DNA of 64,000 nt from an uncultured Candidatus Rokubacteria bacterium (GTDB lineage: Bacteria > Methylomirabilota > Methylomirabilia > Rokubacteriales > CSP1-6): contig CAVRLO010000015.1 in assembly GCA_963721815.1 (NCBI GenBank), positions 76,163 through 140,162 of the forward strand. The letters run 5' to 3'. The position numbers and the translations under genes are program-made. Positions 55,939 through 59,222 of the stretch are shown piece by piece. Under the pieces are notes generated by a model. The model saw nothing but the letters and a program-made list of their open reading frames with translations. It was not told the DNA's origin and ran no database searches. Within the stretch, counting starts at the first letter, position 1, and each line of letters opens with the position of its first letter.

Positions 55939-56853
55939 ATGCCGTACAGAATCTCGCGACTCGGCACGGTGGAGATTCGTAGCCTCGACCTCGACCGCGA
56001 TCTCGATTACTACGTCAATGTCCTGGGGCTGCAGTTGACGGCCCGCGAGGGGCGAACCGCGTACCTCAAAGGCTGGGACGAGCGGCACGCGTACTCGGTG
56101 ATGCTGACCGGAGCGGACCAGGCGGGAATGGCTCGAATGGCGTTTCGGACCGTCGATCCCGAGGACCTCGACTACTACGAGAACCGGCTGCGGAAGTTCA
56201 GTGTCAAGTACGACGTGATCCCGGAAGATTATCGCCGCGGCCGCGCTCTGCGCTTCACCGCGCCGTCGGGCCATGTCGTCGAGCTCTACAACGAGATGGA
56301 TTACACGGGTAACCTGTTGCCGACCGTCAATCCCGCTCCGTGGCCGGAGGGCCTCAAAGGGATCGCGCCTCCCCGTCTGGATCACACGCTCGTGACCGCG
56401 CCCGACCCCCCCAAGGCCATCCAGTTCTTCCAGGAAGTGCTCGAGTTCCGCGTGAGCGAGATGCTCGTCAACCCCGAGGGCGTGCCGGTGGCGGCATGGC
56501 TCTGGCAACGGCCCGCGCCCCACGACATTGCGATCGTGCCGGGTCGAGCTGGGGGATTTCACCATGCCGCCTTCACCGTGGATTCCGCCGAAGCGCTCTT
56601 CCGCGCGGCGGACATCCTGACGATGCACAAGGCCCGCATCGACTATGGGCCCGGCCGCCATGGGATCACGCGGGGCACGACGATCTACTTCTTCGATCCG
56701 TCCGGCAACCGCCTCGAGGCGTTTGGCGGCTACACGGCCTACCAGATGGATCCGGACTGCCGGGCGATCAAGTGGACGACGGACCAGATCGGACCAGCCG
56801 TCTTCTACTACTCCCAGGAGCTGAACGAGACCTTCCTGAGCGTCTACACATGA
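55939..56853 (+). CDS. xylE: Catechol 2,3-dioxygenase (type I extradiol dioxygenase)
   Basis: 'RLDH', 'PHDIA', 'FHHAAF', 'GPGRHGITRG.TIYFFDPSGNRLE'; GGAGG RBS. Confidence 0.85.
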   Translation: MPYRISRLGTVEIRSLDLDRDLDYYVNVLGLQLTAREGRTAYLKGWDERHAYSVMLTGADQAGMARMAFRTVDPEDLDYYENRLRKFSVKYDVIPEDYRRGRALRFTAPSGHVVELYNEMDYTGNLLPTVNPAPWPEGLKGIAPPRLDHTLVTAPDPPKAIQFFQEVLEFRVSEMLVNPEGVPVAAWLWQRPAPHDIAIVPGRAGGFHHAAFTVDSAEALFRAADILTMHKARIDYGPGRHGITRGTTIYFFDPSGNRLEAFGGYTAYQMDPDCRAIKWTTDQIGPAVFYYSQELNETFLSVYT

Positions 56854-56856
56854 GCC

Positions 56857-57231
56857 GTGGTCGCTGACTGTAGCTACACGGTCCGCTTTAGCCCGCTTGG
56901 CGACACCGTGGCCTGTCGAGATGGAGAGACCGTTTTAGCCGCGATCATGCGGTCCGGGGCCAAGGTTATGTTCGGCTGCCGCGGTGGTGGTTGTGGCACC
57001 TGCAAGATGCGTCTGATCTCGGGCCGTGTGGACCACGGCCGCTGCTCGGCGGCGGTTCTGCCGGAGACGGAGAAGAGAGAAGGCTCGTTCCTGTCCTGTC
57101 AGGCACGGCCCCTCACCGATCTTGTTGTCGAGCTGACTGAGACGAACCGGTACCGCAAGCCGTCCGTCCCGTGGCTGGTAGCGCATCCGCCCGGAAGCCG
57201 TTATCCTCTCCGCGAGGGGGAAACGCGATGA
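56857..57231 (+). CDS. xylT: Plant-type 2Fe-2S ferredoxin, XylT-like
   Basis: 'GCRGGGCGTCK...LSCQARP'; directly after the extradiol dioxygenase. Confidence 0.75.
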   Translation: MVADCSYTVRFSPLGDTVACRDGETVLAAIMRSGAKVMFGCRGGGCGTCKMRLISGRVDHGRCSAAVLPETEKREGSFLSCQARPLTDLVVELTETNRYRKPSVPWLVAHPPGSRYPLREGETR

Positions 57232-58160
57232 TGAAGATGACGATCGAGCCGGTGTCCGCCTTCAGTAGCCTCGACGTGCTGGTGGCCATGGAGGAAGGTC
57301 TGTTCAGCGCCGAGGGGCTCGATCTCCGGATGGCGTCGCGCGAGTCCCGCGACATCCGCTCCACCGCGGAAGGGACCCTGTCGAGCCCGGTGACGAATCA
57401 GGGACGGCTTCACGAACGAGGCGAAGCCACGATGTTCCAGGGGTGAGAGTGCGGCAATAACCGCCGGGTGGCGGAAAGCCGAGTGGGTTCGCTTCAGATC
57501 GGACGTCGGTCGATGATCGTCTGTGCTGCCCTCGTCGTTCCTCCCGACTCGAGTGTCTACGTGCCTCAGGAGCTGGCGAACCGGAAGGTGGGGCTGGATT
57601 ACGGCAACGGTACCGCCTACGCCGGGCTCCAGATGCTCGAGGGCGCCGTGCCGCGGGAAGCCATCACGACCTGCGCGGCCGTTACCCATCCGGGCGAGCG
57701 GTACGCGGCCATGATGAGGGGCGAGTTCGACGCGACGGTATTGCAGGAGCCATGGATCACAGTGGCCGAGAAGGCCGGCTGCCGTCTGGTCTCGACCACG
57801 TTCTTCCACGGCACGTGGGTCGGCGGCCCCGACCTCGATCCCGCGCTCTACGCCGCATTCCTCCGCGGCGTCATCCGGGCGGTCCGTCGCATCAAGGCCG
57901 ACAAGCGGCGGTACGTGTCGTACTTCAAGGAAGGCTGGGCCGCGGGGGACCCCGCGGTCCAGGCGCTGACGCCCGACGACTTCAATCTCGGGCGCATCCA
58001 GCTCAGGGAGCCGACCCCGATTCCGGAGGACGAGGCGCGCTGGGCCTGGGAGTGGATGGCGAGCTGGGGCGTGCTCCACGGAACGTTTGACGCCACCGCC
58101 CAGATCAATCGCAAGGTCGAGCGAGAGGCGCACGAGCTGGCGTTCGCCGCGCTCTCATGA
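57228..58160 (+). CDS. NitT/TauT-type ABC substrate-binding protein with in-frame TGA (candidate selenoprotein, 310 aa)
   Basis: ORFs 57171-57446 and 57468-58160 share one frame; TGA 57444-57446 is codon 73; 'ELANRKVG', 'GEFDATVLQEPWITVAEKAG'. Confidence 0.75.
57447..57481 (+). promoter_or_regulatory. Bacterial SECIS-like stem-loop
   Basis: CGGC-AATAA-CCGCC-GGGT-GGCGG-AAA-GCCG; apical loop starts 19 nt after the UGA. Confidence 0.65.
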
Positions 58161-58560: not shown

Positions 58561-58619
58561 TCCGCCTACGATGGTTGGGCATTCCGCGGTCCGTCGCCGA
58601 AAATAGCGACGTGACCGGC

Positions 58620-59082
58620 ATGACGGCGATGCTCGCGCTCGGGCTCGTTGCGCTGACAGTTCCCGCTTTGCTCATCAACCTTTACTTCGCGTCGCTGATG
58701 CTAGGCCGGTGGCCCCGGCTCCGTCACCGCCTGGGCGTGCTGTTCACGACCTGCGGCGCGGACACGTCGTCTTGTGCCGTCGTGGTGCGGACGCCCTATG
58801 CCCGGCTGTTCGGTGGAGCACCAAACGTCCACGTCGGTATCGTCTGGAACCTGGCGTTGCTTGGTCTCGCGCTCTCGTGGATGCTGACCGGTCGGCTGGC
58901 GGTGCCATGGCCCTACTTGATCGTGGCGGGTGCGAGCGTGCTGGTCGGGCTTTACCTCGTCCGGGCCCTCGTCGTCGAGCTCAGACAGCCGTGCCCGCTC
59001 TGAATCGCTGGTCACGCCCTGCACGCGGCGGTCGCCGCACTGCTTGGAATCGTGTGGCCCCGGCGCGCGCTTCTCACGGGTG
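58620..59082 (+). CDS. Vitamin K epoxide reductase (VKOR) family protein with C-P-L-UGA motif (candidate selenoprotein); 3' end uncertain
   Basis: Loop Cys pair 'CGADTSSC..V.TPYARLFG', TM helices, 'QPCPL*IAGHALHAAVAALLGIVW'. Confidence 0.7.
59021..59043 (+). promoter_or_regulatory. Bacterial SECIS-like stem-loop
   Basis: GCA-C-GCGGC-GGTC-GCCGC-AC-TGC; apical loop starts 26 nt after the UGA. Confidence 0.55.
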
Positions 59083-59222
59083 AGAAGGCGAGGAGCTTGG
59101 GGGCGGACACCGCGGCACGCGGGGCGGGGGGCCGCACGCAAACCTTTTGGGGATTGAGCCCGAAGTCCCGCATTCTAGACATGACGCCATTTCAGACCCG
59201 GGACTCGAAGACGGAGATGTCC

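Follow-up and report, generated by a model that had tools for sequence, protein, structure and literature searches.

The gene considered here is interrupted by an in-frame UGA. It lies within a stretch of 64,000 nucleotides (hereafter the window; positions 76,163 to 140,162 of contig CAVRLO010000015.1, assembly GCA_963721815.1) from an uncultured Candidatus Rokubacteria bacterium. Nucleotides 57228-58160 of the window quite probably constitute one gene encoding a selenoprotein of 310 residues, and comparison with homologous sequences makes it very probable that the UGA at 57444 is decoded as selenocysteine (Sec) in a SelB-dependent fashion. The family to which the protein belongs is absent from the current catalogues we examined. 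It is a bacterial selenoprotein family with Cys-containing homologues and a selenocysteine insertion sequence (SECIS) within the coding region.

Two open reading frames (ORFs), 57171-57446 and 57468-58160, were originally predicted to be a single frame split by a TGA, and translation confirms it: they share one frame, TGA 57444-57446 is their sole interruption, and reading through it from the ATG at 57228 gives a product of 310 amino acids. The context around codon 73 is M-F-Q-G-U-E-C-G-N-N-R-R-V. The start of the gene overlaps the stop of the preceding ferredoxin gene as ATGA (57228-57231), an arrangement that would imply translational coupling.

The strongest evidence that the UGA is read as an amino acid comes from its conservation. 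When one genome of each species was scanned, 38 homologous loci came up, 37 of which span codon 73, and all 37 carry TGA there (38 of 38 sequences when the window is counted), never TAA or TAG. These 37 loci are 62-94% identical to the window protein, with matches spanning residues 1-310. The carriers, from at least five phyla, include Rokubacteria/Methylomirabilota, Acidoferrum, Entotheonella TSY1, Chloroflexota/Ktedonobacterales, and Dormibacterota, and the motif at the UGA amongst the orthologues is Q-[G/A]-U-[E/A]-C-G-N-N-R-R-V. The true terminator of the same loci serves as an internal control, and it is variable: 16 TAG, 5 TAA, and 13 TGA (the window among the last). In a survey of 151 genomes sampled evenly across the phylum, TGA was found in all 17 full-length matches with at least 65% identity, and an internal stop in none of the seven full-length matches with 34-47% identity. 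Frameshifts or indels lie 3′ of the TGA in three of the loci (L036 and L037, both from MFD-series metagenome-assembled genomes (MAGs), and L030), possibly through assembly error or because the copies have decayed.

The more distant, uninterrupted homologues show what residue belongs at the site. In 22 full-length homologues free of stops, the column of U73 holds an invariant Cys (consensus N-A-C-E-W-G), and Cys is found there in 17 more; G76 and R80 are likewise invariant in this alignment. The CEWG-like motif originally proposed for related binding proteins is therefore correct. Among 1.84 billion cluster representatives searched exhaustively with HMMER, stop-free full-length homologues turned up only at 42% identity or less, and no such form closer than 47% came from the 1.8 billion representatives, 5.8 billion clusters, and 151 phylum genomes taken together. 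When the N-terminal 95 residues were used as the query against the 5.8 billion clusters, there were only three matches, all stopping at about residue 72. Neither the cluster searches nor the 151 genomes yielded a Cys revertant of the Sec clade, which appears to be obligately Sec.

A maximum-likelihood tree places 33 Sec sequences in one clade (support 100/100) on a stem of 1.09 substitutions per site. Its sister group is a Cys clade (99/99), and Cys-only relatives surround the two. This indicates a single origin of Sec from Cys, followed by marked divergence that included the replacement of Trp75 by Cys75, the source of the U-x-C motif. Cys75 is present in 33 of 33 Sec sequences, encoded by TGC in 32 and by TGT in one, and since both codons are used, selection evidently acts on the amino acid. 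Five genomes (G096, G033, G127, G062, and G114) hold both a Sec-type copy and a Cys-type copy, the latter 44-47% identical to the query, and their residence in the same genome implies that the functions of the two are not redundant. With no revertants found and Cys paralogues kept in the same genomes, the family offers a natural case for the question of Sec versus Cys. One MAG has two Sec-type paralogues (L009 and L025), 92% and 69% identical to the query. A marine (Tara) contig has three Cys-type paralogues in tandem (L054:4032-6837; 311, 311, and 278 amino acids), downstream of a divergent gene for a LysR-type regulator and adjoining gcpE.

If UGA is to be read as Sec, then the genome should have the means to do so, and the original prediction had proposed a search for selA, selB, selC, and selD. 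All are present. The gene for tRNA-Sec (selC) was found by aragorn at C20:61004-61101, adjoining selA (589 bits) and selB (363 bits), and selD lies on another contig (C31:86322-87259, minus strand, 131 bits) with a Sec codon of its own in S-C-A-G-U-A-S-K. Beyond this genome, selA scored above the curated cut-off in every one of 10 further carriers tested, some of them from other phyla (11 with the window genome). Within the phylum, selA was found in 133 of 151 genomes (88%), so near to universal that its co-occurrence with the gene is uninformative there. The claim that Sec is inserted at this UGA is thus supported from three sides: TGA kept by orthologues, Cys invariant in distant homologues, and a complete set of sel genes.

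The nucleotides downstream of the UGA are conserved in a manner that the protein accounts for only in part. The 28 nucleotides 3′ of the UGA (GAGUGCGGCAAUAACCGCCGGGUGGCGG) are almost invariant among orthologues, and 27 of the 49 columns of the nucleotide alignment (A2) are invariant, mostly in columns 1-31. Entropy of synonymous codons, calculated in 9-codon windows from a codon alignment of 33 sequences, reaches the lowest value of the whole gene at codons 75-83 (0.21, as against a mean of 0.93). Individual codons illustrate this well. Arg79 is CGC in 33 of 33 sequences, and Arg93 and Arg94 are each encoded by four different codons. Asn77 (57456-57458), which lies within an AAUAA spacer, is AAT in 29 of the 33, and the adjacent Asn78 is AAC in all 33. 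This pattern of codon use suggests that the sequence of the spacer leading to the hairpin may itself be constrained.

Bacterial SECIS elements are stem-loops directly 3′ of the UGA, with a G opening a small apical loop some 16-37 nucleotides away. The hairpin at 57461-57474 has both the stem-loop and the G in first position of the loop. RNAfold reproduced the two-stem fold that had been described: a CGGC/GCCG stem, an internal loop, a CCGCC/GGCGG stem, and a GGGU loop starting about 19-20 nucleotides after the UGA. The two stems fared differently across 28 sequences. The apical stem shows 98.6% pairing, and 26 of the 28 have it unchanged (two Chloroflexota copies retain four base pairs). The lower stem is 68.8% paired, with pairs 9-38 and 10-37 open in 18 and 14 sequences, respectively; with two of its four pairs broken in most sequences, it was dropped as a feature of the SECIS. 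Of the textbook SECIS originally proposed, conservation therefore extends only to the apical 5-bp stem and its tetraloop, and the lower stem and the geometry of the A-rich loop are peculiar to the window sequence.

The hairpin is rare in the genome. We scanned the genome for TGAs flanked by 40 open codons both before and after, and asked which had a 5-bp GC-rich stem closing a GG[G/U][U/C] loop 8-25 nucleotides downstream. Such a hairpin follows only 37 of the 27,312 qualifying TGAs. The protein-like contexts among the 37 are the window gene, a VKOR-like gene, a gene for a thioredoxin fold with U-P-Y-C, and a gene with G-N-A-A-U-G-S-C. The last of these matches the UGSC (seleno)protein family NF041046 (E = 4.8e-13), and the U-P-Y-C gene matches, weakly, the DsbG-like seleno-lipoprotein family NF041057. 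In the UGSC-family, DsbG-like, and VKOR-like genes, the hairpin lies 16-21 nucleotides after the UGA. Since the UGSC- and DsbG-like genes carry it, this kind of hairpin is also in use among catalogued selenoprotein families of the organism.

Several observations weigh against this account of the RNA and its decoding. The peptide E-C-G-N-N-R-R-V-A is invariant, and so the conservation of the nucleotides is partly conservation of protein. The folding energy is unexceptional for so GC-rich a sequence: its z-score is only -0.44, with 61 of 200 shuffled sequences folding equally well or better. No covariation was detected in either stem over the 28 sequences; the signal is missing because the upper stem is invariant. 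A scan of 57300-57600 against Rfam at E ≤ 10 found no family, just a chance match to RT-3 at 11 bits. Finally, selD switches frame after about residue 160 in an assembly that is 66% complete, probably owing to an assembly indel.

What kind of protein would read-through produce? AlphaFold2, given an alignment of 35 sequences, returned a confident model (predicted local distance difference test 94.2, predicted template-modeling score 0.91) with a single two-lobed SsuA-like fold that spans the UGA, Sec73 ending the strand formed by residues 69-73 and directly preceding the helix formed by residues 74-82. The model shows the class II periplasmic-binding-protein fold, the fold of SsuA, TauA, THI5, and DszB. 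Foldseek matched it to SsuA (3ksx; E = 2.2e-13, template-modeling (TM) score 0.69), TauA, ThiY-like proteins, THI5, and DszB (2de2; TM 0.64), all at 11-19% identity. Sequence profiles see the resemblance faintly. Scores against Pfam NMT1 (18.6 bits; gathering threshold 24.7) and NMT1_2 (15.4; threshold 20.5) are both sub-threshold, no NCBIfam family matched the protein at E ≤ 0.1, and relatives match the SsuA_fam and taurine-binding models weakly, as do 14 of 23 family members with TIGR01728.

The fold raises the possibility that the protein is a genuine substrate-binding protein of an ATP-binding cassette (ABC) transporter, with Sec serving to bind or capture the ligand being transported. Its nearest relatives in sequence, as in structure, are of the SsuA/TauA type, homologues are labeled NitT/TauT binding proteins by the Joint Genome Institute, and there is precedent for selenoproteins of this sort in SaoB and SaoX (bioRxiv 10.1101/2022.07.06.499078). 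The location of the protein argues otherwise. Neither the window protein nor any homologue aligned has a signal peptide, a lipobox, or a membrane anchor; the sequence opens M-M-K-M-T-I-E, with strand 1 already underway at residues 2-6. No NitT/TauT permease-ATPase pair is found near the 38 Sec loci or six Cys loci. ABC_tran does appear in seven related loci, but it belongs to a different type of transporter. Moreover, cytoplasmic enzymes with the same fold are known (DszB and THI5). Given no export signal and no transporter partners, the protein probably works as an enzyme in the cytoplasm and not as an ABC binding protein, and we consider a non-transport role in the cytoplasm likely and a role in transport improbable. 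The original description of an ABC substrate-binding protein thus holds for the fold and fails for the role, and the capture of a ligand for transport seems less likely than catalysis in the cytoplasm, which we infer.

SaoB and SaoX deserve a closer look, because the likeness is considerable: Sec on a periplasmic-binding-protein fold, genes that annotators split at the UGA, and Cys in the members without Sec. Structures 2X26 and 4NMY, similar to SaoX (Haft & Gwadz, bioRxiv 10.1101/2022.07.06.499078), also match the window protein. However, SaoB and SaoX are exported subunits encoded with a permease and an ATPase in a nine-gene operon of strict anaerobes (same source). They have a signal peptide or are lipoproteins, and their motifs are CU (CUxxT) and UxP, whereas the window protein has G-U-E-C, no export signal, and no operon, and comes from soil Rokubacteria. 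It did not match NF040727 (SaoB) or NF040735 (SaoX) at E ≤ 0.1, a further search at E ≤ 0.01 likewise gave neither, and no SAO genes were found among the neighbors of the 38 loci.

Among proteins without selenium, the best structural matches found by Foldseek are SsuA/TauA proteins (3ksx, 3e4r, 2x26, and 6ssy; TM 0.66-0.70), and SsuA 2x26 is also the best match of profile to PDB sequence (E = 3.1e-7 over lobe II). Identity is nonetheless only 11-15%, and the window protein lacks the signal peptide and the SsuBC or TauBC partners. SsuA/TauA binding proteins are not known to share an invariant Cys or Sec in the cleft. THI5/NMT1 HMP-P (4-amino-5-hydroxymethyl-2-methylpyrimidine phosphate) synthase (4h67 and 4esx) is a cytoplasmic enzyme of the same fold with no signal peptide and no transporter; the similarity to Pfam NMT1 is weak and identity is 11-13%. 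DszB (2′-hydroxybiphenyl-2-sulfinate desulfinase; 2de2 and 2de3) is a cytoplasmic enzyme of the same fold (TM 0.58-0.64) with a catalytic cysteine in the cleft (the PDB entry is a C27S mutant with substrate), and it may serve as the best functional analogy for a reactive Cys or Sec in a binding-protein fold. The analogy goes only so far. Cys27 of DszB follows strand 1, but Sec73 would follow strand 3, judging from topology; profile similarity is marginal (E = 0.05); and the window gene has no dsz-type neighbors.

A second alternative is that UGA terminates translation after all, so that an N-terminal part of 72 residues and a C-terminal part of about 230 are made separately and assemble, with the RNA serving reinitiation or coupling. 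This is how the databases present the gene. The read-through query retrieved 712 database proteins, the best 120 of which are all 188-234 amino acids long and cover the C-terminal 60-74% of the query. Because the top homologues are all C-terminal ORFs, gene callers must split the gene everywhere. There is also a potential start downstream in most sequences, GTG (Val81) or ATG (Met96). Yet in Chloroflexota copies Val81 is GTT, which is no start codon. The break would part strand 3 from its helix, within one lobe of a single fold predicted with confidence. It also falls exactly on the invariant Cys column and is always TGA, when the true terminator varies. All 11 carriers tested have selA, and the window genome has the full Sec machinery. 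We regard a split gene as very unlikely.

If the gene is instead a single selenoprotein gene, then the consequence for annotation is substantial. Hundreds of truncated C-terminal entries (about 190-234 amino acids), labeled "NitT/TauT substrate-binding protein" or "hypothetical", need to be re-annotated as one selenoprotein of about 310 residues. A single 90% cluster of the family has 1007 sequences. The Sec clade is abundant in soil metagenomes and is systematically mis-annotated.

Perhaps translation passes the UGA without selenium, with a near-cognate tRNA, helped by the hairpin, inserting Trp, Cys, or Arg, or perhaps UGA has been reassigned. Hairpins 3′ of a stop codon can promote such read-through elsewhere. 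Reassignment, however, is at odds with the use of UGA as the ordinary terminator of the same gene in 13 loci, the window's among them, and the pairing of Cys with UGA, together with complete SelA/SelB/SelC/SelD, is the signature of Sec. That members of catalogued selenoprotein families in the genome have the same type of hairpin also speaks for selenium, and read-through of another kind has little to recommend it and is very improbable. As for a pseudogene or an error of sequencing or assembly, the assembly is incomplete and has at least one gene that is apparently frameshifted (selD), but the same TGA in 37 independent assemblies renders sequencing error untenable, and both flanks are under purifying selection, so that this explanation may be set aside.

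Supposing that the UGA specifies Sec, events might proceed as follows. A ribosome would meet the UGA at 57444, where the established bacterial mechanism, if it applies here, would have SelB-GTP and Sec-tRNA(Sec) tethered by the hairpin CCGCC-GGGU-GGCGG, which starts 14 nucleotides downstream. Sec would be inserted in place of termination, and the product, an enzyme or else a reactive binding protein, would act in the cytoplasm. Sec73 would be its nucleophilic or redox center, and Cys75 would resolve or protect it by way of a selenenylsulfide. That Sec73 and Cys75 form such a U-x-C redox pair is a tentative suggestion, somewhat short of an even chance. The substrate might be a small anionic organic compound, possibly organosulfur or an aromatic catabolite, but the choice of an anionic organosulfur or aromatic class is speculative and rather doubtful. 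One may go further and imagine that the Sec clade descends, by a single origin, from a Cys-type enzyme of the SsuA fold and is now a cytoplasmic enzyme obligately dependent on selenium, its chemistry changed by the replacement of Trp by Cys at +2, which would have created a U-x-C selenenylsulfide center. Taken as a whole, this proposal is possible and on balance unlikely. If it were true, the protein would be the first catalytic selenoenzyme on a periplasmic-binding-protein fold, and it might, for example, cleave C-S or C-Se bonds, or reduce an organosulfur or aromatic catabolite, in a reaction beyond the reach of the retained Cys paralogues.

Some observations tell against a selenium-based chemistry of this sort. 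Class II binding proteins contact their ligands at the end of a strand and the N-terminus of a helix in lobe I. Sec73 would occupy this position in the cleft between the lobes, but it is the topology of the predicted fold that puts it there. In the Cys-type relatives, to judge from their sequences, the site holds one Cys and is followed at +2 by Trp, and so the U-x-C couple would not be the ancestral chemistry. Nor does the neighborhood suggest a partner. An all-against-all BLAST comparison across the 38 loci found no conserved neighbor in more than seven. Most of the clusters that seemed conserved turned out to be overlapping frames of the selenoprotein gene itself and were discarded; the real neighbors (Amidohydro_2, ABC_tran, CoA-transferase III, and CMD) are each found in seven loci or fewer. 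Cys-type homologues sit among genes for LigB, Rieske oxygenase, UbiD, Amidohydro_2, PrpD, hydantoinase, and CoA-transferase. The picture that emerges is of what may be a stand-alone cytoplasmic protein in islands of catabolic genes, closer to DszB or THI5 than to the subunit of a transporter.

A 2026 review of prokaryotic selenoproteomes recognizes 119 families and subfamilies (PMC13188914, Table 1), and its only entries for binding proteins are SaoB (CUxxT), SaoX (UxP), and BtuF (CxxU). None of the 119 combines an NMT1/SsuA-like fold with G-U-E-C. In the deep-Sep supplement, SaoB and SaoX are the sole binding proteins listed. The present family would add a fold other than thioredoxin to the list of 119. 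The mechanism of recoding is itself conventional. Features of the gene and its surroundings are given in Table 1.

Table 1. Positions in the window of the putative selenoprotein gene, its decoding elements, and nearby genes
Feature	Position	Strand	Remarks
Catechol 2,3-dioxygenase-like extradiol dioxygenase gene	55939..56853	+	Pfam Glyoxalase, E = 7.9e-29, plus Diox-like_N
XylT-like plant-type 2Fe-2S ferredoxin gene	56857..57231	+	Pfam Fer2, E = 8.5e-16
Shine-Dalgarno-like GAGGGGG	57214..57220	+	Read from sequence; 7 nucleotides 5′ of ATG 57228
Putative selenoprotein coding sequence	57228..58160	+	310 codons; stop TGA 58158-58160; single internal UGA, putative Sec73
UGA codon 73, probably read as selenocysteine	57444..57446	+	TGA in 38 of 38 sequences; Cys aligned in stop-free homologues
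Nucleotide-invariant block, proposed SECIS core	57447..57474	+	14-nucleotide spacer, then apical hairpin
Cys75 codon, second residue of U-x-C	57450..57452	+	Invariant in Sec clade; Trp in most Cys-type homologues
Lower stem CGGC/GCCG	57452-57455 / 57478-57481	+	Present in window sequence; not a conserved feature
Apical hairpin CCGCC-GGGU-GGCGG	57461..57474	+	Stem 57461-57465/57470-57474, loop 57466-57469; presumed SelB-binding element
VKOR-like membrane protein gene	58575-59160	+	TGA 59001-59003; hairpin 59025-59038

The dioxygenase and ferredoxin genes upstream form a pair that, among the loci examined, stands beside the selenoprotein gene in this genome only. It therefore reflects either a local rearrangement or an operon particular to the lineage.

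About 400 nucleotides downstream of the selenoprotein gene lies the VKOR-like gene, a candidate for a second selenoprotein. It too carries a TGA in frame, at the second position of its CxxC motif (C-P-L-U), with the hairpin GCGGC-GGUC-GCCGC 21 nucleotides past it, and its read-through product matches Pfam VKOR over residues 19-155 (42.6 bits), a match that spans the TGA. Of the loci considered, it is linked to the SsuA-like gene in the window genome alone.

Two further candidates lie outside the window. The DsbG/DsbA-like U-P-Y-C gene is at C15 (minus strand, 251349), its frame apparently disrupted past the motif. The UGSC-type TGA is at C24 (minus strand, 430561), in a gene for a protein of about 519 amino acids, the N-terminal domain of which provides the match to the family. 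The selenoproteome of soil Rokubacteria/Methylomirabilota extends past the usual redox families.

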